Source: Nanobdellota archaeon (GTDB lineage: Archaea; Nanobdellota; Nanobdellia; SCGC-AAA011-G17; JACPNG01). Taken from it: a DNA stretch of 14,324 nt. The stretch covers positions 1 through 14,324 of the forward strand of contig JBBSWJ010000020.1 in the NCBI GenBank assembly GCA_038046345.1. Reading direction: 5' to 3'. Of the stretch, positions 1 to 14,324 are shown piece after piece (positions within the stretch are counted from its first letter, which is position 1; each line of letters starts with the position of its first letter). The notes under the pieces are model-generated. The model was not told where the DNA came from and searched no databases. It worked only from the letters and a program-made list of their open reading frames with translations. The position numbers and the translations under genes are program-made.

Positions 1-1049
1 CCTGGAGCATATCCGCAGTCAGGATTTAACCAAATTCTTTCAGGATCAATATAATCTGAAATCTTTCTTACTTTTGTTATTATACCGTCTACTGTCTCAA
101 TTTTTTTATTTCTTACATCAATCACACCATAACCAATTTGTAAGTTTTGGGGATAATGCTTTACAAGCTCTATTGGATCACCAGAACCAGGAGTCGCATA
201 TTCTAAAACCAATTGATTAACATTGATGTCAAATAAACCGTCTAAAAATCTTTCGACTCCTACTCCATAAAAAGGAGAATCCGCGTTAGGCCAATGGCAA
301 ATATGCATTGATATGTGCAAATCCTTGATACCTTCAACAGCTTTATTCACCATATCTATCGCAAGTTCTAATTCTTCTTTGAAGCCACGGTATTCTTGTT
401 CATTAAGAATTCCAAAAATTCTTCTATACCTATCAGGCTCTTTGGGAGTAGCTTCCAATAAATTTCCTATCATTGGTTCATCTATTTGGACAGTACTCAC
501 ACCTTTGTCACGTAAGCGGACAAGTTCCTGCCTAATAAGTTTTGCATATACATACCCCAATTCTTCTGGTTCGCGATAAACCGGCCCAGACAATTTCTTA
601 TGCCACGTTTCCCACATTAGCAGATACGGAGAAGGCAGAGTTATCTTTACTGGTTTTGAAGAATATTTTCTTATTCTCTCAAGTTCATCAATAGTAAGCA
701 CTACGTCGTCAGGTAAGCGTTCTACTGGAATAGCTCTTGTGTACGGAATATGTGTATTGAGTTGCCTTAAAATTTTCAATGCATCTGGGTGCACTTCCCT
801 TATGTGCTTCATTTGCATGCCTGGGATTTTTTGACCAACAAAAGTAACAAAACTTACTCTTCCCTGTTCTCCATCGGTTATTACATCCAGACCAATTTTC
901 TCTTCCTCTTCTATGGTTTCTTGGATAGCATGATCAATTTGTAAATCTAATTCGTCTTTAGGGGCTTGACCCTTATTATATCTATTAAATGTATCTATCA
1001 ACGTCTTGGAACGAGGAAAGCTACCAACGACGGAAGTTGTAAATTTCAT
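1..1049 (-). CDS. metE: Cobalamin-independent methionine synthase II family protein, single catalytic barrel (core-MetE type); 3' end runs off the window
   Basis: Hand-translated from ATG at 1049; open to base 1: MKFTTSVVGSFPRS...DVITDGEQGR...VQIDEP...MHICHWP...LVLEYA...GVIDVR...IWLNPDCGYAP. The Zn-ligand pattern HxC, E, C is present. Missing from the ORF track, presumably because there is no stop in the window. Confidence 0.88.
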   Translation of the reverse strand, partial: MKFTTSVVGSFPRSKTLIDTFNRYNKGQAPKDELDLQIDHAIQETIEEEEKIGLDVITDGEQGRVSFVTFVGQKIPGMQMKHIREVHPDALKILRQLNTHIPYTRAIPVERLPDDVVLTIDELERIRKYSSKPVKITLPSPYLLMWETWHKKLSGPVYREPEELGYVYAKLIRQELVRLRDKGVSTVQIDEPMIGNLLEATPKEPDRYRRIFGILNEQEYRGFKEELELAIDMVNKAVEGIKDLHISMHICHWPNADSPFYGVGVERFLDGLFDINVNQLVLEYATPGSGDPIELVKHYPQNLQIGYGVIDVRNKKIETVDGIITKVRKISDYIDPERIWLNPDCGYAP

Positions 1050-1071
1050 AGATTAAACAGTTTCACGATTA

Positions 1072-1079
1072 TATTTAAA
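1072..1079 (-). promoter_or_regulatory. TATA box of the metE-like gene
   Basis: TTTAAATA on the minus strand, centred ~26 bp upstream of ATG 1049, preceded by purine-rich BRE-like GGAAGAA. Confidence 0.55.
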
Positions 1080-1166
1080 TTCTTCCTTAATTGCAGGATA
1101 ATTCCTTGTTTTATTTAGCCTAATAAAAAGTCCATACAACGCAACAAATCACAACCCCCAAAACCC

Positions 1167-1188
1167 TTATAAATAAGACACTTGTCTT
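1167..1188 (+). promoter_or_regulatory. TATA box plus palindromic operator candidate for the HTH-topA unit
   Basis: TTATAAAT (1167-1174) centred ~25 bp before ATG 1196, immediately followed by AAGACA-CT-TGTCTT (1175-1188). Confidence 0.5.
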
Positions 1189-1195
1189 GAGCACC

Positions 1196-1399
1196 ATGAA
1201 ACAAAAGCAACCCGATCAAAAAAAACTTGAACTAATCCTAAAAACACTAAAAGCACACCCACAAGGACTTTGGATAAGAGAAATAGCAAGAAAAACAAAC
1301 CTTGACAAATCTTTAGTATCCAGATACATAAATGAACACCTAAAAAACCATGTAAACCTATCTACAAACCTACCAATTAAACTGGTGAAACTAAAATGA
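1196..1399 (+). CDS. Small (winged) helix-turn-helix DNA-binding protein
   Basis: LWIREIARKTNLDKSLVSRYIN is a typical HTH. ATG 1196 is preferred to TTG 1187 because of TATA spacing. The stop overlaps the topA start (ATGA, 1396-1399). Confidence 0.75.
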   Translation: MKQKQPDQKKLELILKTLKAHPQGLWIREIARKTNLDKSLVSRYINEHLKNHVNLSTNLPIKLVKLK

Positions 1400-4300
1400 C
1401 CCAACTAATAATCTGTGAAAAACCATCAGCAGCAGAAAGAATTGCAAACGCACTTGCAGAAGGAAAAATAGAAAAGAAAACCATAGAAAAAGTATCATAC
1501 TATATCATCAACAGAAATAAAAAAAAGATAATCATTGGATGCGCAGTAGGCCATTTATACAATATCGCAGAAAAAGACAAAAAAGGATGGACATATCCTG
1601 TGTTCTCTGTAGAATGGAAACCATCATCTGAAGTATCAAAAACAGCAGCATTTTCAAAGAAATATTTAGATTTAATATTAAAACTCGCAAAAGAAGCAGA
1701 CTCCTTCATCGTGGCCAGCGTTGATTATAATGAACCAACCCCTATACTCGAAAATGGAGTCATGAAGATAGTAAGAATTGGGGAAATAATAGAAAATATA
1801 ATCGACAACAAGAAAAACATCGAAGACTATTGGGTACCAGCATTTGGTGATGATGGAATAATTTCTTTCAGGCCTTTGAAACGTGCGATAAGGCATAAAA
1901 TCAAAGAAGATTTATATGAGGTAAAACTAAATTACGGAAGAACGATCAAGCTGACCTCTTCTCACAATGTGTTTATTCTAGAAAATGGCAGAATAAAGAA
2001 TGTCAAAACTACTGATCTAAAACATGGCATGAAAGTACTCTGCCCATCAATCATCCCTGCATTTTCTAGTACAAATAAAGAGCTTAATTTCTTGGAACTT
2101 TTGGACCACAATAGTTCAAGAGATATTTTTGTTGAAGGCCAAGATATCGCAAAAATCATTAAAGAAAGGACGTTCAATAAAGAACGATCTAAATCCCCGC
2201 TTAGTGAGGAAAGACTTGCATTAACAGAAGCAGGAGCCATGAAATTAAAAAGATCAAGGCTGTCAAAAGGATTCCCAACAAGCGTTGTTGCTAGATTAGC
2301 AGGTGTTTCACAGCCAACAATAGTCTGCTGGGAGAATCATAGAAACAACCCGACAATCTCGAATCTATCAAGGTATCTCCCGGTTATTGGAATTAGTTCT
2401 GAAGGATTTTTAGAGAATAAGGATTACTGCAGACGCTTACTACCATCTTTTACTAATTTACTTCAACATGTTTATAATACCCAATTCAAAAATTACAGTA
2501 ATTTTTCTAGAGCCACAATCCAATTAAAAGACTTGAAGCAAGAGGATTTGGCAAGGATAAAAAATGCCTATATTTATGGTTCAAAAAATAAGAGAAACAA
2601 ATTACCGATAAAGATCTCATTCGATATGAACCTAGTTAGAATTTTAGGATATTATTTAGCTGAAGGAGACATTAATCAAAACTATCGTATTAGGTTTAGT
2701 TTAGGGCTCCCAGGATTTGGGCATGAAAGCAGGATAATTAAAGACGTGAAAAACTTTTGTAACTTTTACAACATTCATTATAACGAGTACCTGAACAAAG
2801 GAAGTGGCAGTCAAATCATCACCGTTGACAACTCTGTTCTTGCTGCATCTTTCAAATTGTTACTAAATTTTGGCGGAGAGAATGCAAGAGAAAAAAGAAT
2901 ACCATCGATTATATATGGGTTGCCAGAAAAACTAAAGTTAGAGTTCTTACAAGCTTATTTTCTTGGAGATGGTTCAGTTTCAGAGAGTGGAATTAGTTTT
3001 AATACATCTAGTGAATGGTTAGCATATGATTTAAGGTATCTGCTCCTTCAATTTGGAATTTCTACTTCAATTTATACAGCAGAAAAGTCAGGCAAGAGTG
3101 ACAAACCATCTTGGCAAATTATCGTTACCGGCTCAAGTGATTTAGCAAAACTTAGAAAAGTATGGCAATATCATCACAAGAGTAACTTATTAAACATTTC
3201 TGCGCATCCAAAAGAAAAAAAATATATTAGCAACAAATTTGGGAATCTCATCCAGTTACCTATCAAAGAAATAAAAAAAATTAAGCCATCTAGCAGATAT
3301 GTTTATGATTTTTCTGTTGACGGAGAGAACTTTATCGCGGGAAATGGTGGTATCTGTTGCCATAATACAGATTATGATCTAGAAGGAGAAGTAATTGGAC
3401 TAAATGTAATACGCTTTGCTTGCAAGAAGAACGATGCAGACCGCATGAAATTTTCCACCTTAACAAAAGATGAGCTAATTGATGCTTATGAAAATCGTCA
3501 AAAACACCTTGACTGGCAACAAGCTGAAGCAGGAGAAACACGGCATATACTTGACTGGTTTTATGGAATGAACCTATCAAGAGCATTATCACTTTCAATA
3601 AAAGCAGCAGGGTCATTCAAAATCATGTCCTCTGGAAGAGTTCAAGGACCAACATTAAACATTCTTGCTGAAAGAGAAAATGAAATCAAAATATTTAAAC
3701 CAGAACCTTTCTGGCAAATTGAACTAAATACTACCAATAAAATTAATGCTTGGCATGTTGAAGATAAATTCTGGGATAAAGATAAAGCTACAAAAATATT
3801 CCAAAATACAAAAAATCATCCAGCTATTGTAAGCAAGATTTCAAAAAATGAATTTAGCCAACCACCACCTAACCCATTTGATCTTACAAGTTTACAGCTT
3901 GAAGCATATAAAACTTTAAAGATTTCTCCAAAAAACACATTACAGTTAGCTCAAAACCTATACTCTGCAGGTTGTATTTCATATCCACGAACAAGTTCTA
4001 ACCAGCTTCCACCTTCCTTAAACTATAAAAAAATTATTTCATCTTTGAAAAAACAAAAAGCTTATTCAAAAATTTGTGAAGATTTACTAAAACAAACTAA
4101 CTTAATGCCTAATAACGGCAAGAAAACAGATCCTGCTCATCCAGCAATATACCCTAGTGGAGAAACACCAAAAACCTCATCTCAAAAACAAAAACAACTT
4201 TATGACTTAATTGTTAGAAGAACCTTATCATCCTTTAGCACGCCTGCCTTTAGGGAAACTATCACTTTAGAAATTGATGTAAACAAAGAACTGTTTAAAG

Positions 4301-5127
4301 CTAAAGGAACAATCACAAAAATTCCAGGATGGCATTCTATTTATGCTCATTTTGTTAAATTAAAAGAAGAAGAACTTCCTAAGGTAGAAGAAGGACAAAA
4401 ATTAAATGTAAAATCCATTGACTTACACGAAAAAGAAACTCAACCACCAAAAAGATTTACTCCGGCTTCAATTATAAAAGAACTCGAAACTAAAAATTTG
4501 GGAACCAAATCAACGCGCGCATCAGTAGTAGACTCCTTATTTCAACGTAATTATCTAACTGGAGAATCTTCAATTGAAGTAACTGATCTTGGGCTAAAAA
4601 CAATTGATACCCTTAAAAAATACTGCCCTGAAATTCTTGATGAAGAACTTACTCGACATTTTGAACAAGAGATGGAACAAATTCGTGATAAAAAGAAAAA
4701 AGGTACAGAAGTTATACAAGAAGCTGAGATAGTACTTAAAAAATTATTAAAACATTTTAAACAAAATGAACTACAGATTGGCACCGCTTTACTAAAAGCA
4801 AATAGAGAAACTCAGGATAATGCAAGTATTCTCGGTAAATGTTATGTTTGTAATAAAGGAGAGCTCCGCCTTATGTCTTCAAGAAAAAGCAGAAAGAAGT
4901 TTGCGGCATGCAACCAATATCCTAAATGCAAAACAACTTATAGCATTCCTACTGGAAAGATTTTACCTAGCTCTAAAGAATGCGAATTCTGTAAAACCCC
5001 TATAATCAAAGTTATACGTGAAGGTAAACGCCCATTCAATATGTGCCTAACTTATGATTGTAAGTCTAAAGAAACTTGGGGCAAGAAAGATGACACTAAA
5101 AACCAACCCCAGACTGAAGAATCTTAA
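1396..5127 (+). CDS. topA: DNA topoisomerase IA (archaeal TopA/Top3 type), intein-containing; 1243-aa precursor, 693-aa mature protein
   Basis: TOPRIM LIICEKPSAA, GHLY, A|TDYDLEGE, SSGRVQGPTL, active-site ISYPRTSS (Tyr codon 3982-3984), AHPAIYP, LGTKSTRA, C-terminal Cys-rich zinc ribbons. Confidence 0.96.
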   Translation: MTQLIICEKPSAAERIANALAEGKIEKKTIEKVSYYIINRNKKKIIIGCAVGHLYNIAEKDKKGWTYPVFSVEWKPSSEVSKTAAFSKKYLDLILKLAKEADSFIVASVDYNEPTPILENGVMKIVRIGEIIENIIDNKKNIEDYWVPAFGDDGIISFRPLKRAIRHKIKEDLYEVKLNYGRTIKLTSSHNVFILENGRIKNVKTTDLKHGMKVLCPSIIPAFSSTNKELNFLELLDHNSSRDIFVEGQDIAKIIKERTFNKERSKSPLSEERLALTEAGAMKLKRSRLSKGFPTSVVARLAGVSQPTIVCWENHRNNPTISNLSRYLPVIGISSEGFLENKDYCRRLLPSFTNLLQHVYNTQFKNYSNFSRATIQLKDLKQEDLARIKNAYIYGSKNKRNKLPIKISFDMNLVRILGYYLAEGDINQNYRIRFSLGLPGFGHESRIIKDVKNFCNFYNIHYNEYLNKGSGSQIITVDNSVLAASFKLLLNFGGENAREKRIPSIIYGLPEKLKLEFLQAYFLGDGSVSESGISFNTSSEWLAYDLRYLLLQFGISTSIYTAEKSGKSDKPSWQIIVTGSSDLAKLRKVWQYHHKSNLLNISAHPKEKKYISNKFGNLIQLPIKEIKKIKPSSRYVYDFSVDGENFIAGNGGICCHNTDYDLEGEVIGLNVIRFACKKNDADRMKFSTLTKDELIDAYENRQKHLDWQQAEAGETRHILDWFYGMNLSRALSLSIKAAGSFKIMSSGRVQGPTLNILAERENEIKIFKPEPFWQIELNTTNKINAWHVEDKFWDKDKATKIFQNTKNHPAIVSKISKNEFSQPPPNPFDLTSLQLEAYKTLKISPKNTLQLAQNLYSAGCISYPRTSSNQLPPSLNYKKIISSLKKQKAYSKICEDLLKQTNLMPNNGKKTDPAHPAIYPSGETPKTSSQKQKQLYDLIVRRTLSSFSTPAFRETITLEIDVNKELFKAKGTITKIPGWHSIYAHFVKLKEEELPKVEEGQKLNVKSIDLHEKETQPPKRFTPASIIKELETKNLGTKSTRASVVDSLFQRNYLTGESSIEVTDLGLKTIDTLKKYCPEILDEELTRHFEQEMEQIRDKKKKGTEVIQEAEIVLKKLLKHFKQNELQIGTALLKANRETQDNASILGKCYVCNKGELRLMSSRKSRKKFAACNQYPKCKTTYSIPTGKILPSSKECEFCKTPIIKVIREGKRPFNMCLTYDCKSKETWGKKDDTKNQPQTEES
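1717..3366 (+). mobile_element. Intein in TopA (550 aa) with LAGLIDADG homing endonuclease and an XRE-type HTH insert
   Basis: Block A SVDYNEPTPI (Ser1), block B LTSSHNVF, block C LGYYLAEGD (2644-2670), block E FLQAYFLGDGS, block H LAYDLRYLLLQFGI, blocks F/G VYDFSVDGENFIAGNGGICCHN, +1 Thr. Removing it restores IVA-TDYDLEGE. Confidence 0.94.
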
Positions 5128-5707
5128 AAGGAATTTGTTTCTCTTCGGGTCTTTCTCTAAAAATCTTTCTTGGTTCTTTTTGTAAAAAAAAAATACTATC
5201 CGCCCAAGGTTTTAATATCTTTTCAGCAGTCATGTGCAACTTTCCTGTTTTCAAATCTTGATACACTTGATTTGTTAAAATTATTGGCAACTGTTTTGAT
5301 ATCTTCCTTAATGTTCTTATCTGCCAATCTAATAATTGTTGTAGTTTTTTTGGATCTTTCTTAACCTCCATTCTAAAATGCACCCCGATTGTATCAATTA
5401 CTATCAGACTGATATCTTTTAATTCAGATATTTTTTTAACAACCTTAACCTGCTGATAATAGTTTTTTGGAGAAAAAATTATCAAGTTGTCTATAAACTT
5501 ATCATGATCGGGAGCAAGCTGTTTTATACGTTCAATAGACAAACTGTTTTCTGCATCAACAAATACTACCTTTTTTTCTTTTCTTGCTTGTTCAAGCGCT
5601 GCAATTACTGCAAGAGTAGTCTTACCAGTAGCTGCCTCTCCGTAAACTATATTTAACCCATCATACTTAAAAAAAGAATCAAGATACCTGCTACCTGTAC
5701 TTATCAT
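5096..5707 (-). CDS. radB: DNA repair/recombination protein RadB (RecA-family paralog)
   Basis: 203 aa; ISTGSRYLD, Walker A GEAATGKTT, VVFVDAE, Walker B LIVIDTIG, IILTNQVY. No RadA N-terminal domain. Overlaps the topA 3' end by 32 nt (convergent). Confidence 0.85.
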   Translation of the reverse strand: MISTGSRYLDSFFKYDGLNIVYGEAATGKTTLAVIAALEQARKEKKVVFVDAENSLSIERIKQLAPDHDKFIDNLIIFSPKNYYQQVKVVKKISELKDISLIVIDTIGVHFRMEVKKDPKKLQQLLDWQIRTLRKISKQLPIILTNQVYQDLKTGKLHMTAEKILKPWADSIFFLQKEPRKIFRERPEEKQIPFKILQSGVGF

Positions 5708-5791
5708 AAACTAGGGGTATAAATGCCACTTTTTAAGGACTATTATCCCGCTTAAACTCCACACAAAACTTTTTATACACCCCCTAGTTTA
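5707..5791. promoter_or_regulatory. Divergent radB/cdc48 promoter region with an 11-bp inverted repeat
   Basis: radB TATA-like CTTAAAAAG (minus, 5729-5737) and cdc48 TATA TTTTTATA (5770-5777), each ~26 bp from its ATG. TAAACTAGGGG (5707-5717) and CCCCTAGTTTA (5781-5791) are exact reverse complements. Confidence 0.55.
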
Positions 5792-5798
5792 TTTTAAC

Positions 5799-8700
5799 AT
5801 GCCATCTGAAGCCAATCTAAAAGTTATGGAAGCCCTCCAAGAAGAAGCATATAAAGGAATTATCCGCATAGATGCAGAAACAATGAACCTAATAGGTGTA
5901 AGACCCGGAGAAATAGTAGAAATTGAAGGAGCAAGAATAACAGCAGGGATTGTAGACAGAGCATACCCCACTGATGTCGGCCAATCAGTAATAAGAATGG
6001 ATGGAATCATCAGAAGGAACGCCAAAACAGGGATTGGAGAATATGTCAAAGTAAGAAGAGCAGACGTAAAAGAAGCAAAAACAGTTCAAGTTGCACCTGC
6101 ACAAAAAGGAGTAATGATTCAAGCTGATCCTGAACTATTCAAAAGATCACTACTTGGAAGAGCCGTTCTTAAAGGAGATATCATAAGCCCTGGCGGAACA
6201 AAAAGAAGAAGAAGAACAATGAGTGACTCACCATACGGAGATATCTTTGAAGTTTTTGAACATGGATTTATGGGAAGCTTTGGTTTTGGCGGATTAAAAT
6301 TTGTTATAGTCAACTCAAATCCCAAAGGGGTGGTAATTATATCTGATCAAACAGAGATTACTCTATCATCTAAAGCTATTGAAGTATACGAAGAAAAAGT
6401 TCCAGATGTAACCTATGAAGATATTGGAGGATTAGATGATGAAATTAAAAAGATAAGAGAAATGGTTGAACTGCCCTTAAGACATCCTGAAATATTTGAA
6501 AGACTTGGTGTCCAGCCTCCAGGCGGTGTTTTATTACATGGGCTTCCGGGATCTGGAAAAACCTTACTTGCAAAAGCAGTTGCAAATGAATCTGACGCAA
6601 ACTTCTTACTAATCAATGGTCCAGAAATTGTAAATAAATTCTACGGGGAGAGCGAACGAAAACTTCGCGACATCTTTGAAGACGCCGAAAAAAACTCACC
6701 AAGTATTATTTTTATTGACGAGATAGATGCAATAGCACCAAAAAGAGAAGACACACATGGAGAAGTAGAAAGAAGAATTGTTTCAACATTGCTAGTATTA
6801 TTGGACGGACTTAAGTCACGCGGAAAAATTATTGTAATCGCTGCAACAAACAGACCTAATTCAATTGATCCAGCATTAAGACGCCCAGGAAGATTTGATA
6901 GAGAAATAGTGATAGGCGCACCAAACAGAAAAGGCAGATTAGAAGTTTTAAACGTTCATACAAGAAACATGCCTTTAGAAGGTGTTAGCCTTGAAGAACT
7001 TGCAGACATTACCCACGGATTTGTTGGAGCAGACTTACTTGCTTTATGTAAAGAAGCAGCACTGAGCGTGTTAAGAAGATTAATTGTTGAACTACGACTT
7101 GAACAAAAAGAAAAAATACCTCAAGAAACTCTTGAAAAAATTAAAGTCACAAAAAATGATTTCATGGAAGCACTGCGCCTTGTAAGACCTTCTGGATTAA
7201 GAGAAATACTAATTGAAACACCAAATGTTGGATGGAAAGATATTGGAGGTTTAGAAAAACAAAAACAGGAATTAATTGAAGCTGTTGAATGGCCAATAAA
7301 AAATCCTGAAGCATTCAAAAGAATTGGTATTAAAGCACCTAAAGGCATACTACTGTACGGCCCACCAGGCACTGGTAAAACCATGATAGCTAAAGCAGCT
7401 GCTAAGGAATCAGATGCAAACTTTATTTTAGTAAAGGGCCCTGAACTATTAGACATGTGGGTTGGACAGTCTTTACCTTATAATGAAGAGATTCTTATAA
7501 GAAAAAATGGTAATGTCATGCATAAAAAAATTGGCGATATTGTTGAAGGTAAAGAGGAAGTTGACGTGCTATGTTTTGACAAAGATCTTCGAGTTAATTT
7601 CTCACCTATTGAGGACTTTATCAAACACAAAACAAAATCTCAACTTGTAGAAGTAACAACAAAAACAGGCAGAAAAATTAAGGTTACCATGGATCATTCA
7701 CTATTTTCTTTTGTAAATGGTAAGATTGTAAGTACTCCTACTGGGTATCTTATCCCTTATGAAAGTTACATAGCAATACCAAGACGTTTAAATTTACCAA
7801 GAGAGCAGCTTAACCACCTTAATCTTTATAATGGGTTTAAGGAAGATCGTTCTGTTTTTATTGTAGGAGCATCTGACCACCTTAAAAGAGCTAAAAAACT
7901 CCTTGGAAATGATACTGTTGCAAAACTTCTTAACATTAGTAAAAAATACCTTAGCGATATTCTTTCTAGAGATCTTCCAGTTTCACTCCCTTGTTTTATT
8001 GATCTAATGACCAGAGCTAAGCTGGCAGTTGATCATGCTGAAATGAGAGTCAAGCTCAAAGGGAGCACTCACACATACCCAGCAAATTTTGCTATTGATA
8101 GTAACTTTTGGAGGCTTATAGGGGTTTGGGTTGCTGAGGGGGATTTTGAAGAATATATGGTGAGAATTCACAATAAACATCCAGAGATTCGTTCTGATGT
8201 AAAACAAATATGTAACCAATACCATTTCAACTTTTCTGAAAATGAAGATGGTATTTTCATTACGTCTAAGCTTGTGAAAAAGATCTTCCAGGAAATATTA
8301 TGTTTAGGCACTGGGGCATATGCAAAAAAAATACCAACATGCATGTTTACACTTGATAAAAAGAGTAAAGCTAATTTTCTCAAAGGATATTTTAGTGGAG
8401 ATGGAGCAAATTATCCAAAAGCTGATGGAAAATTTGGCATAGAATCTAGTACAATAAGCAAAACTCTTGCAAATGATCTTCTGTATATCCTTCTTGATTT
8501 TGGTATTATTGCAACTAACTATCTTGTTAATAAAGAACCTCACAACCAACAATATAGGCTTTCTATTTTAGGTGTAGAACACTTTAAACGTTTCTTAGAA
8601 ATTGGGTTTATTGACACATTACGGAATGAAAGGATAACTCAATATATCAAGTCAAGAAAATGGAGCCGTTCTGATTTGATACCCTTATCGGGGGGGGTTC

Positions 8701-9557
8701 TATCACTAGCGACAATATGTAATAATCCTATCAATAATGTAACAATTGGAAAGGACAGAATGAAGCAGATGTTGCAGATCTGTGATGCTGACCACTCGAA
8801 GTATAAAGAATATTGGGATATTGTAGAAGGAGATATATACTTTGATTTAGTAAAAGAAATAAAGACTATTGACAAAGAAGAGTTTGTTTATGATATATCT
8901 GTGCCTGATGGACAAAACTTTGTTGCTGGTTTTGGGGGAATATTCGCACATAACTCTGAGAAAGGAGTGCGCAAGATTTTTGAGAAAGCAAGACAAGTTG
9001 CTCCAACTATTATCTTCTTTGATGAAGTTGATGCAATTGCCCCAAGAAGAGGAATTGAAGTTGGAAATAAAGTTACTGAAAGAATGGTTAATACCTTGTT
9101 AGTTGAGATGGATGGTCTTGAAGAGCTAAATGATGTGGTGATTATTGCCGCATCAAACAGACCCGACATTATTGATCCTGCATTATTAAGACCTGGCAGG
9201 TTTGACAGACTGCTTTTATTAGGTCCGCCAGATACTCCAGCTAGAGAACAAATATTCAAGTTACACACTAAGAACATGCCTCTTGCAAAAGATGTTGATT
9301 TGCTAAACATGGCAGAACAAACTGAAGGATACGTTGGAGCAGATATTGAAGCTATTTGCAGAGAAGCAGGATTGCTATCATTACGAGCAGATATTAATAC
9401 TAAAGAAGTTACCAAGAAATTTTTTGACGAAGCTTTGACAAGAGTAACACCATCCGTTACTGAAGAAGCCATGAGCGCATACACTGAAATAGAAGGAGAA
9501 TACTTGAAAAAAGCACGCGCTGGACTAGTCAAAGATATTCCTAGTTATCTGGGATAA
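5799..9557 (+). CDS. cdc48: CDC48/VCP family AAA+ ATPase, intein-containing; 1252-aa precursor, 757-aa mature protein
   Basis: N-domain ([25 protein letters not shown]); D1 GLPGSGKT / IIFIDEID / [13 protein letters not shown]; D2 GPPGTGKT / IIFFDEVD / [10 protein letters not shown]. Confidence 0.96.
7470..8954 (+). mobile_element. Intein in the Cdc48 D2 domain (495 aa) with LAGLIDADG homing endonuclease
   Basis: Block [11 protein letters not shown] (Ser1), block B VTMDHSLF, block [11 protein letters not shown], block [11 protein letters not shown], block [15 protein letters not shown], blocks [25 protein letters not shown], +1 Ser. Removing it restores [14 protein letters not shown], parallel to D1 [10 protein letters not shown]. 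Confidence 0.94.
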
Positions 9558-9590
9558 ACCACAGACTGTTCTTCCTAAAAACAAAATATT

Positions 9591-10469
9591 CTAGTCATCA
9601 GTCTTTGTGGTAACTATAGGCTTATCTTTTATTAGAATAGTATGCTCTGCTTGACTTACTAATCCTTTTGATCTTTCCACTAACTGGGGGTATTGACTTA
9701 TTATTTTTTCTTTTTCCAAAACACTAAACGCATATTCCACCATCGGCATGTTTACTGCACGCATAGAAAATGGCAATGTCTTGTACTCTTTTTCTAAGTA
9801 TTCTAGTATTTTTTTTACTTGAAGGTTTCTTACTGGCTTTTTTTTATCGATTCTAAAAATTCCTGATCCTTTCCCTTCCATTATTATGCCTTCTCCTGTT
9901 GTTGCAAATGGCTCTATTGCTATCAACATCCCTTCTTCTAATATTCTTGGATCTTTGTTGTCATAATTTGGTATTGTTATTCCTGCATGCACTACATACC
10001 TCTCTATCAAATGTCCTGATAAATTTTTTATTGGAGAAAATCCAGCACGCGTTATTGTTTCTTGTATTACTCTTCCTATCTCTCTTACCTGTATGCCTGG
10101 TTTTAAAATTTTTATTGCAGAATTTAATGCGTTCCTTGAAGCGTTTACTAAATCCTTATGTTTATCACCAATACTAACCGTTAGAGCATTGTCTGCTATC
10201 CATCCGTCTATATGTACTCCTACATCTAACTTAACTACATCACCATCTTCAAATGTAGTTGTGTCTTTTAATAATGCAACATTATGTGCAGCTACATGAT
10301 TTCTGCTTATGTTTACTGGAAAACCTAACTTTCCGCCCATGCTGTATATTTTTTCTTCAACTTTCTTTGTAACTTCAAGTATACTTTTTCCTTCTTTGAT
10401 TAATGGTTTCCCTTGTTGTAAGGCCGCTTCGGCGATTTTCCCTGCTAATAATACTTTTTCTTCATCCAT
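9591..10469 (-). CDS. map: Methionine aminopeptidase, type II (archaeal)
   Basis: GFPVNIS..HVAAH, KLDVGVHIDGWIAD, NLSGHLI, AIEPFAT, SQAEHTILI metal-ligand motifs; type II helical insert present. Confidence 0.95.
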   Translation of the reverse strand: MDEEKVLLAGKIAEAALQQGKPLIKEGKSILEVTKKVEEKIYSMGGKLGFPVNISRNHVAAHNVALLKDTTTFEDGDVVKLDVGVHIDGWIADNALTVSIGDKHKDLVNASRNALNSAIKILKPGIQVREIGRVIQETITRAGFSPIKNLSGHLIERYVVHAGITIPNYDNKDPRILEEGMLIAIEPFATTGEGIIMEGKGSGIFRIDKKKPVRNLQVKKILEYLEKEYKTLPFSMRAVNMPMVEYAFSVLEKEKIISQYPQLVERSKGLVSQAEHTILIKDKPIVTTKTDD

Positions 10470-10519
10470 GATTCCATCACAAATAAGCTACACTATTTAA
10501 GTATTTTTATGAACAAGAT

Positions 10520-11536
10520 TTATTGTAATGGCAATGATTGTACTGCTTTCCAGTATTCAAATGCTTTTTTTTGTGTTCCATCATTGTTTAATAAACTAAT
10601 ATGATTAAATGTATCTGCAGCTTCCCCGAATTCAAAGTCGTGAGGAGCTACCCATATAATCCCTTCCACTTTAATATCATTTGCTTGCTTTGTTATTTTC
10701 TTAATGTAATCAACCTGCTCTTGTTCACTTCCTTTTACCCCGATTAATATTGATTGCGATGGCCATCCTGTTTCGGTTATAAACACCGGTTTGTTTGTAT
10801 ACTTTCTGATCTCTAGCAAGTAGTCTTCTGGTATTTCTTCCACAGTTTTATAATTTAAGTATGGGTAAACAGTAAACGATACTGCATCAAGTTTTTCTTC
10901 AAACATTTTTAATAAGTGCCAGTTAGGCTCAAAATTTTGCCCGGTAAATGCTGTTTCGCCTTTCATTCTGTCTAATTGAAAATTACTCATTACTTTGGTG
11001 TTTGGACTTACCTCTTTTATTGCGTCATATATCTCTTTGTAATAATTTACAACTATCTCAAAACTTGCTGGCTCGAAAAGATAAAATGAATTAAGTTCTA
11101 CTCCAATGGACATATAACCTGGTTTGTACTTTTTCGCGATTGAAACCGCAGCTTTTTTTAAATCATCCCCTTTTGTATTTGTGAATGGTCCATCTTTATA
11201 ATCAATTATTAATGCTACATAGGGCTCTATATCATTTATTGCTTGGTACGCAACATTTACCTGTTCTGGAATGCCATCAATATCAGGAGCTGCATCAATT
11301 CTTGTGTGTACCCCATAATATTTTCCGTATGAAGCAATCTCTTTTTTAAAAAAGTCTATCCAGTCATCTTGAGAAGGATTAGGAAAGTTTCGTGGGATGA
11401 ACCCTGCTGTTCCTGTTTCAAAGCTCCTGCTTGTGATAAGAAGCTCTTTTGTTAATGGGTTTTGTTCGTTTGTTTTGTTGCATGAAGTAAGAATTAAGAG
11501 AGTGAGCATGATCATTACTATATGTCTAGCCGCCAT
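10520..11536 (-). CDS. Secreted/lipid-anchored clan GH-A-like glycoside hydrolase (GH53/GH17-like TIM barrel)
   Basis: N-terminal signal with lipobox-like LILTS|C. Putative acid/base IGVELN, DAVSFTVYPY and putative nucleophile VFITETGWPS. The family assignment is pattern-based only. Confidence 0.62.
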   Translation of the reverse strand: MAARHIVMIMLTLLILTSCNKTNEQNPLTKELLITSRSFETGTAGFIPRNFPNPSQDDWIDFFKKEIASYGKYYGVHTRIDAAPDIDGIPEQVNVAYQAINDIEPYVALIIDYKDGPFTNTKGDDLKKAAVSIAKKYKPGYMSIGVELNSFYLFEPASFEIVVNYYKEIYDAIKEVSPNTKVMSNFQLDRMKGETAFTGQNFEPNWHLLKMFEEKLDAVSFTVYPYLNYKTVEEIPEDYLLEIRKYTNKPVFITETGWPSQSILIGVKGSEQEQVDYIKKITKQANDIKVEGIIWVAPHDFEFGEAADTFNHISLLNNDGTQKKAFEYWKAVQSLPLQ

Positions 11537-11944
11537 CTTATTTGTTAGAAATAAGTGTTTATAAGCTCTTGCGATTATTAAAATTGAACTAAAAAATTAA
11601 CAGCAAGAATATTTAAGCATAAATTAATTATTTTAAGCCATACTAAGATTAAAAGTTTTAATCAGTAGCTAATAATTATACCAATAATGATAGCTATATA
11701 TATTAATCAAAAATTAAAATATTTAGTGTTATATCTGTTTTAATAAAAAGTCTTAATTAGTCAGTTTATAGGTAACCAAAAATATTTAGTGATAGGTTTA
11801 TTCAGAAATCATTAAAAAATTAATTTAATTTATGAATGCGCTCATTAGAGTATACATCAAAATATGTTCAATTTTAAAGTAGAATGGAAGATTTTATCAT
11901 AAAAGATCTAGGGTTTATGAGCTCCATAATAAAAGTAACAAATA
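11537..11944. other. Very AT-rich non-coding tract
   Basis: Hand count gives 57 G+C in 300 nt (11581-11880), about 19% GC. No ORF in the track. AAAATATTTAGTG occurs at 11716 and 11779. Confidence 0.7.
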
Positions 11945-11955
11945 AGTTCGCATAA
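11945..11955 (+). promoter_or_regulatory. Extra Xer-binding half-site upstream of dif
   Basis: AGTTCGCATAA equals the reverse complement of the dif right arm and matches the left arm 10/11; it starts 21 bp before the left arm. Confidence 0.6.
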
Positions 11956-11965
11956 GTTAGCTAAT

Positions 11966-11993
11966 GGTTCGCATAATGTATCTTATGCGAACT
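11966..11993. other. dif: dif-like Xer recombination site (11-6-11)
   Basis: GGTTCGCATAA-TGTATC-TTATGCGAACT; arms 10/11 inverted; 23/28 identical to E. coli dif GGTGCGCATAATGTATATTATGTTAAAT. The palindrome extends to 11961-11998. It lies ~100 bp upstream of a Xer recombinase gene. Confidence 0.85.
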
Positions 11994-12065
11994 ATTAGTC
12001 TGATCTTTGAAAAAGACATTATATAACCAAGAAACCAATGAGTTATCAAGATTTTTACCAACTAA

Positions 12066-12073
12066 TTTATAAG
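12066..12073 (+). promoter_or_regulatory. TATA box of xerA
   Basis: TTTATAAG centred ~26 bp upstream of ATG 12096. Confidence 0.5.
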
Positions 12074-12095
12074 TCATCACCTATACTAAAAGCAA

Positions 12096-12923
12096 ATGAC
12101 CGAGGTGATGCTAAATAATCTTGAAACAGAGCTACAATTAAGAGGATTTTCTGAAAATACCATAAAAACTTATAAAAATCATGTGAAACAGTTTATTAAA
12201 ACTTATAAGCAAGAACTAGAACATTTAGGTGAAGATGATATTAAATCATACTTTGCAGAACAAATTCGTAATAAAGTAGCACCTAGAACAATAATAGTTA
12301 AGCAAGCTGCATTAAAATTTTTTTATAGAGAAGTAATTAAGAAAGACATTGTAAAACTTAAAGCCCCAAAAATCCCAAAAACTTTCTTTGAAGTTCTTAC
12401 CAAAGATGAAATAAAAAAGATTATTGCATCAACAGGAAGCAGAAAAACAAGGTTAATAACAAAATTTCTTTATTCCACTGGTTTACGCGTGTCAGAATTA
12501 GTAAACTTAAAAATTAAAGATTTAGACCTAAATGAAAAAGCGGGGTGGGTAAGAATGGGAAAGGGGGCTAAAGATAGATTTTTTCCTTTATCTGATATAA
12601 TTGCCGTAGAACTAAAACAATATATACAACATTTGCCGTTGAATCAAGATTACTTATTTATGGGAAGGAATGGAAAATTAAGCGTGCGAAGTGTTCAAAA
12701 ATTTGTTAAAAATTCTGCAAAACGGGCCGGAATAACCAAACAGGTAACACCCCATAAGCTACGACATTCTTATGCAACCCACCTTATGGATAGTGGAATT
12801 GATGTAGTGATTATACAAGAACTTTTAGGACATAGCAATTTAAACACTACACAGATATACACTCATGTTAGCAAAGAACATCTAAAACGAGTAAAAAATC
12901 CATTAGATACTTTAGAGTTGTAG
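12096..12923 (+). CDS. xerA: XerA/XerC-like site-specific tyrosine recombinase
   Basis: SAM-like N-domain LRGFSENTIKTY; intact catalytic set R (TGLRVSE), K (GKGAK), HxxR (HKLRH), H (LLGH), Y (TQIYTHV); 275 aa with no integron-integrase insertion. Confidence 0.88.
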   Translation: MTEVMLNNLETELQLRGFSENTIKTYKNHVKQFIKTYKQELEHLGEDDIKSYFAEQIRNKVAPRTIIVKQAALKFFYREVIKKDIVKLKAPKIPKTFFEVLTKDEIKKIIASTGSRKTRLITKFLYSTGLRVSELVNLKIKDLDLNEKAGWVRMGKGAKDRFFPLSDIIAVELKQYIQHLPLNQDYLFMGRNGKLSVRSVQKFVKNSAKRAGITKQVTPHKLRHSYATHLMDSGIDVVIIQELLGHSNLNTTQIYTHVSKEHLKRVKNPLDTLEL

Positions 12924-12979
12924 ACTACGCTCAAACAAGATAACATAAAACTTATTAAGCTCTTACTCTATTTTAAATT

Positions 12980-13609
12980 ATGCCATTTTGGATATTTAAA
13001 AAGAGGGATGAATTATCTAAACATATGGATGGAATTCAAACTTCTCTTAAGATTTCTTTTAAACACATTAAAAGTGATATAAAGATTTTAACTGAATGGA
13101 TTGACCATTTTAATAATAAGCATGATAAACACGAAGAAGAAGTCGAAAAGATAAATCTTAATGTGCTAAGCTTAAATAAACGGATAATTGATATTGAGAA
13201 GGTTATTAGCAGCCTGTCCAAACAACAAACAGCTGTCCAAACACCTGTCCGTTTTAAACAGCCTCAAACGGACAACCGTTTTAAACAGCTGTTTGAACCT
13301 GTCCAAATCAAACAAGCGGGAGATACTTTTACGAAGAATATGACCCCAATGGAAAGGGCAATAATAAGTGTACTTCTCAATACAGACCTAAAGTTGAGTT
13401 ATGATGATTTAAGAGTAGCTATTGGGAGAGATAAGAGCACGATACGGGGTCAAGTAAATAATATCAAACAAAAAAACAGCAAACTCTTAAAAGAAGTTGC
13501 TGAGTCAACAGGTAGAAAACGATTTTATATTGATGAACCAACCAAAAATAGTATACTAAAAGAGCGGAACAGCCTAATAATTAATGCGGAGAACAAAAAA
13601 GGCGCATAA
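12980..13609 (+). CDS. Hypothetical protein: N-terminal coiled coil, Q/T-rich linker, C-terminal winged HTH
   Basis: Heptad-like N-half; HTH-like LSYDDLRVAIGRDKSTIRGQVNNIK followed by a wing-like ESTGRKRFYI. TATA-like TTATTAAG at 12952-12959. Confidence 0.75.
   Translation: MPFWIFKKRDELSKHMDGIQTSLKISFKHIKSDIKILTEWIDHFNNKHDKHEEEVEKINLNVLSLNKRIIDIEKVISSLSKQQTAVQTPVRFKQPQTDNRFKQLFEPVQIKQAGDTFTKNMTPMERAIISVLLNTDLKLSYDDLRVAIGRDKSTIRGQVNNIKQKNSKLLKEVAESTGRKRFYIDEPTKNSILKERNSLIINAENKKGA
13214..13307. repeat. Intragenic cluster of direct and inverted repeats in the linker-coding DNA
   Basis: CTGTCC at 13214, 13233, 13245 and 13299 (CTGTCCAAACA twice); CCGTTTTAAACAGC at 13249 and 13276; TGTCCGTTT (13246) / AAACGGACA (13266) inverted; palindrome AAACAGCTGTTT at 13283-13294. 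Confidence 0.7.
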
Positions 13610-13611
13610 TC

Positions 13612-14202
13612 CTATAAATTATCAGATAACATTTTTTGAGTTGGGTCTATCTTGTAGAAATGATTTACTAGCAAATGTTTAATATTAAGCTCTCTAAAAT
13701 CTCTGGAGATATGTAAAAAGACTGTTTTGTGATGAGCCTCTTTTGATAATGGCGCCCCTTTTTTGATAAGCGAAGAAAGGTATGATCTTACGCCCCCTTC
13801 TGATATACCAAGCTTCTTCGAGATGATAGGGTATGTAACTACCTCTTTTTCATCTTCTAACTGATATACTGTTAGTAAAATAAGCAGTTCTTTGCGAGTC
13901 AGTATTTCTAGCCAATTTGCTAATTGATTGTGAGTGAGTGAGTGAGTGAATGAGTGAGTGAGTGAGTGAGTGAGTGAATGAGTGAGTGAATGGTCCCCAT
14001 TATTGCTTATGGAAACTGTTGATTTTGGTTGTAATTGGCTGTTACTGCTTATTACATCGCTTTCTGATTTGATTTGACCCTTAACCTCAATAATAAGATT
14101 ATTAAGCTCAATAATCCTGTTTTGTAAGGCAGATATATCCTCTTTTACTTTTTTAAAGGCATTTTTTACGTTTTCTTCTATTTGATCTGTGTTTTCGGGC
14201 AT
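13612..14202 (-). CDS. Hypothetical protein: N-terminal coiled coil, (HSLT)n linker, C-terminal winged HTH
   Basis: HTH-like VTYPIISKKLGISEGGVRSYLSSLIKKG. ATG 14202 is preferred to TTG 14211 because TATA-like TTAAATAT (14223-14230) is centred ~25 bp upstream of it. Confidence 0.75.
   Translation of the reverse strand: MPENTDQIEENVKNAFKKVKEDISALQNRIIELNNLIIEVKGQIKSESDVISSNSQLQPKSTVSISNNGDHSLTHSLTHSLTHSFTHSLTHNQLANWLEILTRKELLILLTVYQLEDEKEVVTYPIISKKLGISEGGVRSYLSSLIKKGAPLSKEAHHKTVFLHISRDFRELNIKHLLVNHFYKIDPTQKMLSDNL
13930..13989 (+). repeat. Tetranucleotide microsatellite, 15 units (13 GTGA + 2 ATGA), within the CDS
   Basis: Read directly from the sequence; 60 nt, encoding HSLTHSLTHSLTHSFTHSLTH on the minus strand. 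Confidence 0.95.
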
Positions 14203-14258
14203 TTTATACAAGAAGGTTAAAGATATTTAATGATTATTGTGTTAAAATACTCAACAAG

Positions 14259-14324
14259 GAGTGAGAAGTGAGTGAGAAGTGAGTGAGAAGTGAGTGAGAA
14301 GTGAGTGAGAAGTGAGTGAGAAGT
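14259..14324 (+). repeat. Perfect 11-bp tandem array (GAGTGAGAAGT) x6, running off the window edge
   Basis: Six exact copies starting at 14259, 14270, 14281, 14292, 14303 and 14314; no spacers. Confidence 0.95.

Follow-up and report, generated by a model that had tools for sequence, protein, structure and literature searches.

Initiator genes that contain their own binding sites are known from phage lambda (O and ori-lambda) and from RepA_N plasmids, in which the iterons lie inside the initiator gene, and in Bacillus subtilis parS is located inside spo0J, which is a precedent for a binding site within the gene of its binder. The ParR/parC system of plasmid R1 combines 11-bp direct repeats with a ribbon-helix-helix protein, while Spo0J/parS relies on a ParB fold. 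The bacterial XerS/difSL and XerH/difH systems are single-recombinase units with dif beside the recombinase gene. In Pyrococcus, the coding region of dp1 contains a cluster of origin recognition boxes (ORBs) that is bound by Cdc6 in vivo (PMC1904270), and the role of this cluster in Pyrococcus and Thermococcus is not known (PMC1904270). UBP, a general nucleoid protein with hundreds of sites, recognizes the ucm motif within oriC1 of Sulfolobus (PMC12141716). Here we describe a locus of a Nanobdellota archaeon in which two winged helix-turn-helix (wHTH) genes, termed P1 and P2, are located beside the recombinase gene xerA and its dif site, a few kb from the predicted replication origin (oriC). 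The window analyzed covers bases 1-14,324 of scaffold C20 (55,676 bp), from an assembly of 821 kb in 35 contigs that is 97% complete. Its protein relatives indicate an archaeon of Woese/Pacearchaeota type (Nanobdellota, DPANN). The locus, at the outer edge of a conserved Nanobdellota gene block, is proposed to be an undescribed origin-side control locus, and the literature searched contained no published description of it.

The initial annotation of the window had listed an AT-rich tract, a dif site with an extra half-site, an intact Xer recombinase, two convergent genes of shared architecture, repeat clusters in the DNA encoding their linkers and an 11-bp tandem array, and had read these as a single chromosome-maintenance module. 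The recombinase, dif with its half-site, the P2 linker repeat and the array were all found. The two genes proved to be a conserved pair, the repeat clusters were recovered across orthologs with lineage-specific sequence and constraint at the nucleotide level, and the linkage of the pair to xerA and a dif-like palindrome recurred in relatives. The AT-rich tract was real as well, but its membership of the module was not supported.

P1, P2 and the DNA encoding their linkers

P1 (12980-13609, plus strand) encodes a 209-aa protein, in which a long N-terminal helix is followed by a disordered linker (approximately residues 85-120) and a MarR/ArsR-like winged helix at the C-terminus. P2 (13612-14202, minus strand) encodes a protein of the same architecture, 196 aa long when read from the ATG at 14202; its open frame extends to a TTG at 14211. 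The AlphaFold2 models had a mean predicted local distance difference test score (pLDDT) of 85 for P1 and 78 for P2, with residues 54-84 of the P2 linker below 50, and the three helices and beta-hairpin wing of a MarR/ArsR-type winged helix were found in both. Foldseek matched P1 to MepR (5.8e-5), SmtB and MarR, and P2 to the wHTH proteins SmtB, AdcR and NolR at about 1e-2. Pfam helix-turn-helix models stayed below cut-off for both proteins, and Pfam, NCBIfam, PDB sequence, Foldseek and Atlas searches returned only generic wHTH relatives. A total of 101 homologs were found for P1, the named ones from Pace- and Woesearchaeota, and its Atlas clusters were specific to Nanobdellota. The pairwise BLASTP match of P1 to P2 was barely significant; the two are regarded as paralogs because their family profiles align over 162 columns with a probability of 97% (hhalign, E 9.5e-11). 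P1 and P2 probably dimerise via the long helix and bind DNA via the MarR-like winged helix. The two genes are convergent in most relatives. In the window their stop codons are located 2 nt apart on opposite strands (13607-13614), and convergent transcripts would therefore overlap unless they end inside the partner gene.

A 23-nt element was found at the same place in P2 across the order. It encodes one and the same octapeptide in 37 genes, and in four genes with open P2 frames it is read in another frame to give an unrelated peptide. Since the box was kept through a change of reading frame, it is the DNA that is conserved. Of the 43 box copies examined, 41 fall within an open frame, 160 aa or longer, that reads the box in either of the two frames used by P2. 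The exact box pattern has 20 specified bases, and scanning one genome per species from 185,579 species, with approximately one match expected by chance, gave at least 120 loci, all but one of them archaeal. Among the matches listed, the box is located inside P2 in Woese-, Pace- and Nanoarchaeota, while outside DPANN, in Methanosarcinales, Thermoplasmata, Methanomicrobia, Nitrososphaeria, Thor- and Hermodarchaeota, it adjoins orc1 and frequently forms inverted pairs that flank this gene. On a complete Pacearchaeota chromosome (710,724 bp) mismatch-free copies of the pattern are confined to oriC and P2. In relatives, the P2 genes thus contain the dyad core followed by a G-string that is found in ORBs and that matches the origin boxes adjoining orc1; judged by its sequence, the P2 box of these relatives is a canonical ORB and a putative Orc1/Cdc6 site. 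It is this ORB inside the P2 of relatives that ties the locus to replication. P2 has either one ORB or two direct ones, never an inverted pair around an AT-rich core, and some lineages carry a second full box upstream of P2.

In the window, a decayed relic of the ORB was identified at 13993-14016 (minus strand) from its position and its alignment with the orthologous P2 boxes. The first dyad half and the G-run are kept and the second half is lost, which leaves two mismatches in the 13-nt core and matches at 14 of the 20 pattern positions, and no complete dyad core followed by a G-string was found in the window's own P2. In Pyrococcus, mutagenesis showed that Cdc6 does not bind unless the two core motifs are both present, including the half that is lost here (PMC1904270). 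The closest relative, G005, has an intact box. In locus L043 (genome G006), the P2 box lacks one spacer base at approximately 6513 and the P2 frame is broken there, as a result of either a real frameshift or an assembly error.

The P2 box is followed by short words, mostly of period 4, that differ between lineages and recur upstream of the P2 start. The longest word shared between the stretch after the box and the region upstream of P2 had a mean length of 10.1 nt, compared to 3.8-4.6 nt for three size-matched controls, and a shared word of at least 9 nt was found in 17 of 33 loci but in only 2-5 of 33 in the control regions. In the window, this part of the P2 linker is occupied by a tetranucleotide repeat of 15 units at 13930-13989 (minus strand; (TCAC)n on the coding strand; Tandem Repeats Finder score 106), and orthologs have other 4-nt units at the same place. 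One sibling assembly has an identical tract and two end inside it, one of these with base variants; no change in the number of units was observed.

The 11-bp tandem array (14259-14324, minus strand; six exact copies by Tandem Repeats Finder) lies between P2 and a gene termed h140 and ends approximately 57 nt before the start codon of P2. Reading of the sequence places it just upstream of a putative TATA-like element, and its unit shares a 9-nt word with the tetranucleotide tract of the P2 linker. A scaffold gap of 100 N directly follows the last base of the window. Beyond it the array resumes in the same register with at least four more copies, and since it occurs nowhere else in the genome, the scaffold join is supported. 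In another assembly of this population, the sequence runs from h140 through the array to P2 (L219, 3460-3530) with approximately five copies, and the difference is due either to true variation in copy number or to collapse during assembly. At about this length, tandem repeats are often collapsed by short-read assemblers. The relatives examined, G005 included, have short words upstream of P2 and no 11-bp array.

The linker of P1 contains a word cluster at 13205-13320 (plus strand), in which a 9-mer occurs three times in two frames, a 14-mer occurs twice and an inverted 8-mer pair is located at 13247 and 13266. This stretch holds 27 identical 8-mer pairs compared to 1.5 in simulated sequence, and 27 was reached in 7 of 2000 simulations. 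Within the window's clade, the 9-mer is translated as Val-Gln-Thr in one frame and Ser-Lys-Gln in another, while its reverse complement gives Phe-Gly-Gln; a second clade has a different 7-mer in the P1 linker, in all three frames and in reverse. Of 27 distinct P1 genes, 25 had their commonest linker 7-mer in at least two frames or orientations, and 15 had it on both strands. The valine codons of the repeated VQ(T/S) tripeptide were GTC (37) and GTT (16), never GTA or GTG, whereas genome-wide valine codon usage is 5% GTC, 43% GTT, 39% GTA and 13% GTG, so that GTA and GTG together make up 52%. The rare codons GTC and TCC, each at 5% genome-wide, are fixed in the P1 linker words, and words are kept across genera in which the proteins are only 25-50% identical. 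Clusters of P1 words were not found elsewhere in the focal genome, oriC included. Altogether, these sequence comparisons indicate that the linker DNA of P1 and P2 is conserved as DNA, in several frames and in both orientations. Because both linkers are predicted to be disordered, the linker peptide is most simply regarded as a passenger.

Position of the pair beside the predicted oriC

The sole orc1/cdc6 gene of the focal genome is located at 19.7-20.9 kb of scaffold C20 and is followed by the PolD genes DP1 and DP2. The spacer upstream of orc1, at approximately 19215-19698 of the scaffold (5016-5499 of locus L001), contains three ORBs and an unwinding region of 16% GC. Two of the ORBs are located on one side and one, inverted, on the other side of this region, which is the most AT-rich stretch of the genome. 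Inverted ORBs, an AT-rich unwinding element and an adjoining initiator gene, i.e., the features expected of an archaeal oriC, were therefore found together at approximately 19.2-19.7 kb of the scaffold, and this combination was not found at the P1/P2/xerA locus. The spacer adjoining orc1 is predicted from its sequence to be a textbook archaeal oriC. The distance to this oriC is approximately 7.3 kb for dif and 5 kb for P2.

The order orc1, oriC, PRC-barrel, LonB, arginyl-tRNA synthetase (ArgRS), h140 and P2 converging on P1, with xer within 0-7 kb, was found in approximately 20 genomes from many families of the order, and the same gene order was also seen in further Woese- and Pacearchaeota loci. 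The complete 711-kb chromosome from Pacearchaeota has xer, P1 and P2 at 507-510.5 kb and oriC/orc1 at 525 kb, which places the block 15-18 kb and dif 18 kb from oriC. From the conserved order and the position on a complete chromosome we conclude that the block is core, chromosomal and origin-side. An integrated mobile element made up of xerA and the pair was also considered, and was rejected, since the block occurs in single copy amid core genes and its synteny extends across the order.

Placing the locus by whole-genome skew, as the initial annotation had proposed, could be carried out on the complete relative, but did not yield a position. The cumulative GC, AT, purine and keto skews and the gene-strand bias were weak, with mutually inconsistent extremes. 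The detrended GC skew had its minimum at 436 kb and its maximum at 102 kb, compared to oriC at 525 kb, and the skews and strand bias neither place nor exclude an origin or terminus.

Among the neighbouring genes, that of the small PRC-barrel protein (18879-19214 of scaffold C20; 4677-5015 of L001) is nearest to oriC on this side in the focal genome and in the relatives examined. The gene h140 (140 aa; 14530-14949 of scaffold C20; 328-750 of L001, minus strand) lies between ArgRS and P2, directly upstream of P2, and is kept across the order; Pfam, NCBIfam and PDB searches with h140 gave no relative. Farther into the window, the genes of a type IA topoisomerase (1396-5127) and a CDC48-like AAA ATPase (5799-9557) are both interrupted by inteins containing LAGLIDADG, and the two intein regions share approximately 25% identity. 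No RNA genes were revealed when the region was scanned for Rfam families and tRNAs, which gave a single sub-threshold chance match.

xerA, dif and the AT-rich spacer

The xerA gene (12096-12923, plus strand) encodes an archaeal Xer-type tyrosine recombinase of 275 aa with matches in both Pfam and NCBIfam. It scored 263.1 bits against the NCBIfam equivalog NF040815 (recomb_XerA_Arch; cut-off 220), while the XerC, XerD and XerS models stayed below their cut-offs. In Pfam it matched Phage_integrase (1.6e-46, match 100-262) and a SAM-like N domain. The catalytic R, K, H-x-x-R, H and Y residues can all be read in the translation, and XerA is the only full tyrosine recombinase of the focal genome.

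The dif site (11966-11993) is laid out as 11 + 6 + 11, with 10-bp inverted arms that are perfect and a spacer of 6 bp. The distance to the start codon of xerA is 103 nt from the end of the site and 130 nt from its first base. The site is unique in the genome, with 10 of 10 arm positions complementary compared to five mismatches in the next best candidates, and its inner arm bases and spacer resemble those of the experimentally confirmed dif of T. kodakarensis (PMC11840125). A repeat search identified an extra half-site at 11945-11955 (plus strand), which repeats the left arm in direct orientation and starts 21 nt before it, and extra half-sites were also found beside the dif-like sites of relatives G005 and G037. 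Since dif sits in front of the gene, binding of XerA at dif may also regulate xerA, and one more XerA protomer could be recruited by the third half-site.

With 8-14 kb fetched per locus, xer was present in 32 of 53 P1/P2 loci. A dif-like palindrome was found within 1.5 kb of xer in 19 of these 32, and in 10 it was located 11-150 nt upstream of the xer start. In several relatives, two or three sites resembling dif are located within 3-5 kb of xerA, i.e., L045 (G012) at 8194, 10496 and 11307, L047 (G016) at 9855 and 12789, and L050 (G022) at 12532 and 13133; XerA may have inserted small elements at dif, of which these sites would be the footprints.

In the bacterial and Thermococcales model dif is located at the replication terminus; here it lies 7.3 kb from the oriC adjoining orc1. 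The Sulfolobus dif is likewise not in the terminus region and is close to xerA (PMC2958812), and in haloarchaea dif is found upstream of a xerA operon (PMC11840125). Taken by their sequence, xerA and the upstream dif are an ordinary single-recombinase Xer/dif unit, predicted to serve in chromosome dimer resolution. Its layout is one already described in Sulfolobus and haloarchaea, and what stands out is the fixed position near oriC.

The composition profile revealed an AT-rich spacer at 11537-11944, between a divergent glycosyl-hydrolase-like gene and xerA, with 300-nt segments over 11526-11901 dropping to 18.7% GC. It is one of five stretches of at most 21% GC per 300 nt in the 821-kb genome, the other four being the oriC unwinding region, the start of dp1, C11:36326-36751 and C35:476-951. 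This rarity partly reflects the length of the spacer, because few intergenic spacers in the genome exceed 300 nt. The tract contains a 16-nt direct repeat at 11716 and 11779. ORB motifs were absent from it, and matches to the ORB core with up to two mismatches were no commoner in the window than in shuffled sequence. A comparable tract upstream of dif was found in only one of 10 relatives examined, and the tract is best read as a long lineage-specific spacer.

Proposed function and relation to described systems

We favour the explanation that P1 and P2 are dimeric site-specific binders with operators in and before their own genes, and that Orc1 joins them at the embedded ORB in relatives to give an origin-side regulatory complex. 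We consider the odds for this to be roughly even (about 0.5). Dimers of P1 and P2 would bind the linker and upstream words as operators, Orc1/Cdc6 would bind the ORB in the P2 linker, and P1, P2 and Orc1 would together assemble over the 5' half of P2 as a small nucleoprotein complex. The complex would autoregulate the pair and couple it to the availability of the initiator near oriC. In the focal genome the ORB has decayed, and the words have expanded into the 15 tetranucleotide units and the 11-bp array before the promoter.

A number of points weigh against this explanation. Gene identities, synteny, conservation at the nucleotide level and the identity of the box with origin ORBs were observed directly, and from these we infer binding by P1, P2 and Orc1 and its consequence. 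The placement of the origin is a prediction, and the skew of the complete relative is weak. The ORB of the focal genome is degenerate, and the link to Orc1 may therefore be lost in this genome. We know of no established function for a single ORB or for two direct ones. The upstream words match the P2 linker words in only about half of the lineages, and the P2 units are lineage-variable and mostly of period 4, which is also how slippage-prone simple sequence looks. Finally, the correspondence between type of recognition helix and type of word is confounded by phylogeny.

The words could be slippage-prone simple sequence that is tolerated in disordered linkers, with the tetranucleotide tract at most a phase-variation switch that frameshifts the P2 winged helix. 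This would agree with the variation of the period-4 units between lineages, with the length of the tract, as 15 units is long for a coding tetranucleotide tract, and with the assemblies that break in it, one of them with base variation. The array has approximately five copies in one assembly and at least six plus four in another, and in G006 the P2 frame is broken where the box is one base short. Slippage does not, however, fit with the fixation of rare codons and the retention of words between such divergent proteins, with their recurrence upstream of P2, or with a box that survives a change of reading frame and falls, for all but two of the 43 copies examined, within an open frame of 160 aa or longer; nor did the sibling assemblies (one identical, two ending inside the tract) differ in unit number. 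We find it unlikely that slippage explains the words. About as doubtful is an origin-proximal centromere, in which P1 and P2 bind the direct repeats in the manner of ParR/parC or Spo0J/parS and mark the origin for segregation. The position by oriC is conserved, the genome has no other clusters of these words, the 11-bp direct repeats are reminiscent of parC, and a site inside the gene of its own binder has its precedent in the parS of B. subtilis spo0J. Against this, the pair is without a neighbouring NTPase of ParA, ParM or SegA type, the conserved neighbours being h140, ArgRS, LonB and PRC-barrel and the other neighbours xerA and the glycosyl-hydrolase-like gene; the array is missing from G005 and the other relatives examined, and the words surround the P2 promoter, which fits regulation equally well.

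The initial annotation had offered two further functions, neither of which is supported. One was an Orc1-independent origin, with P1 and P2 as initiators that carry iterons in their own genes and the AT-rich tract as unwinding element. The iteron-like word clusters in the linker-coding DNA of both genes, the rank of the tract among the five most AT-rich stretches of the genome and the ORB in the P2 of relatives would be expected of such an origin. A canonical oriC is nevertheless present 5-7 kb away, complete with orc1-PolD, three ORBs and an unwinding region, and the embedded element is itself an Orc1 box, decayed in the focal genome. Moreover, a comparable AT-rich tract by dif was found in only one of 10 relatives, and the tract is located 2 kb from the P2 box. 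P2 is never found with the inverted ORB pair around an AT-rich core that real origins have, and neither protein resembles a Rep or initiator family beyond the generic wHTH. A separate origin is consequently improbable. The other was a role for P1 and P2 as accessory factors of XerA at dif, like PepA/ArgR at cer, or as organisers of the terminus, like MatP at matS. While most loci of sufficient extent have xerA/dif within 0-7 kb of the pair, and a third half-site adjoins dif, the block is located beside oriC and not opposite to it, both in the approximately 20 syntenic genomes and on the complete 711-kb chromosome. Up to 7 kb of variable DNA separates xer from the pair in relatives, and the words of P1 and P2 do not occur at dif. 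Such a role is very improbable.

Returning to the origin-side regulatory complex, a more specific picture would be that the initiator and the two winged-helix proteins assemble on dual-coding DNA near oriC, beside the only dif, and that the focal genome is a variant in which the Orc1 box was lost and the words were amplified. We put this picture forward tentatively and hold it to be possible rather than probable. If it is true, Nanobdellota have an undescribed system for control or marking of the origin. An ORB that is kept letter for letter inside a regulator gene by the origin offers a concrete handle on replication control in DPANN, and the sister genes with linkers conserved as DNA and not as protein offer a second one. 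As Orc1, P1 and P2 are three purifiable proteins with short, defined DNA targets, the proposal is directly testable. The linkers are also a clear case of dual coding, in which conserved 'peptide motifs' of disordered linkers can be translated DNA signals, and this matters for annotation and for analyses of evolutionary rate. The origin-side dif/xerA extends the observation from Sulfolobus that dimer resolution in archaea need not be tied to the terminus.

The locus resembles described systems in part. Its recombination unit is similar to xerA/dif of Sulfolobus (PMC2958812) and to haloarchaeal dif (PMC11840125) in having one Xer and a unique 28-bp site of 11 + 6 + 11 layout immediately upstream of the gene. 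It differs from known single-recombinase units by its location a few kb from the predicted oriC across a DPANN order, by the extra half-site next to dif and by the two or three dif-like sites near xerA of some relatives. With ParR/parC and Spo0J/parS the locus shares 11-bp direct repeats before the gene of a small DNA-binding protein, a putative intragenic site and a position close to the origin; it differs in having no partner NTPase, a lineage-specific array and a wHTH fold. As in lambda O and RepA_N initiators, short repeats resembling binding sites occupy the part of the gene that encodes the linker between domains. There is, however, no homology to these initiators and no conserved unwinding element adjacent to the genes, the canonical origin is separate, and the block is part of the chromosomal core and not a mobile replicon. 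Like UBP with ucm, P1 and P2 would be non-initiator DNA-binding proteins at an origin-associated motif; in contrast to those of UBP, their words are confined to their own locus. The ORB3/mini-ORB cluster in dp1, encoding the small subunit of PolD, of Pyrococcus and Thermococcus (PMC1904270) is similar in that boxes lie in a coding region a few kb from oriC and are conserved among relatives. Here the host gene is instead a lineage-specific wHTH regulator, and the box, usually single and decayed in the focal genome, is located in the segment for a disordered linker, where it is followed by short lineage-specific words that recur at the promoter.

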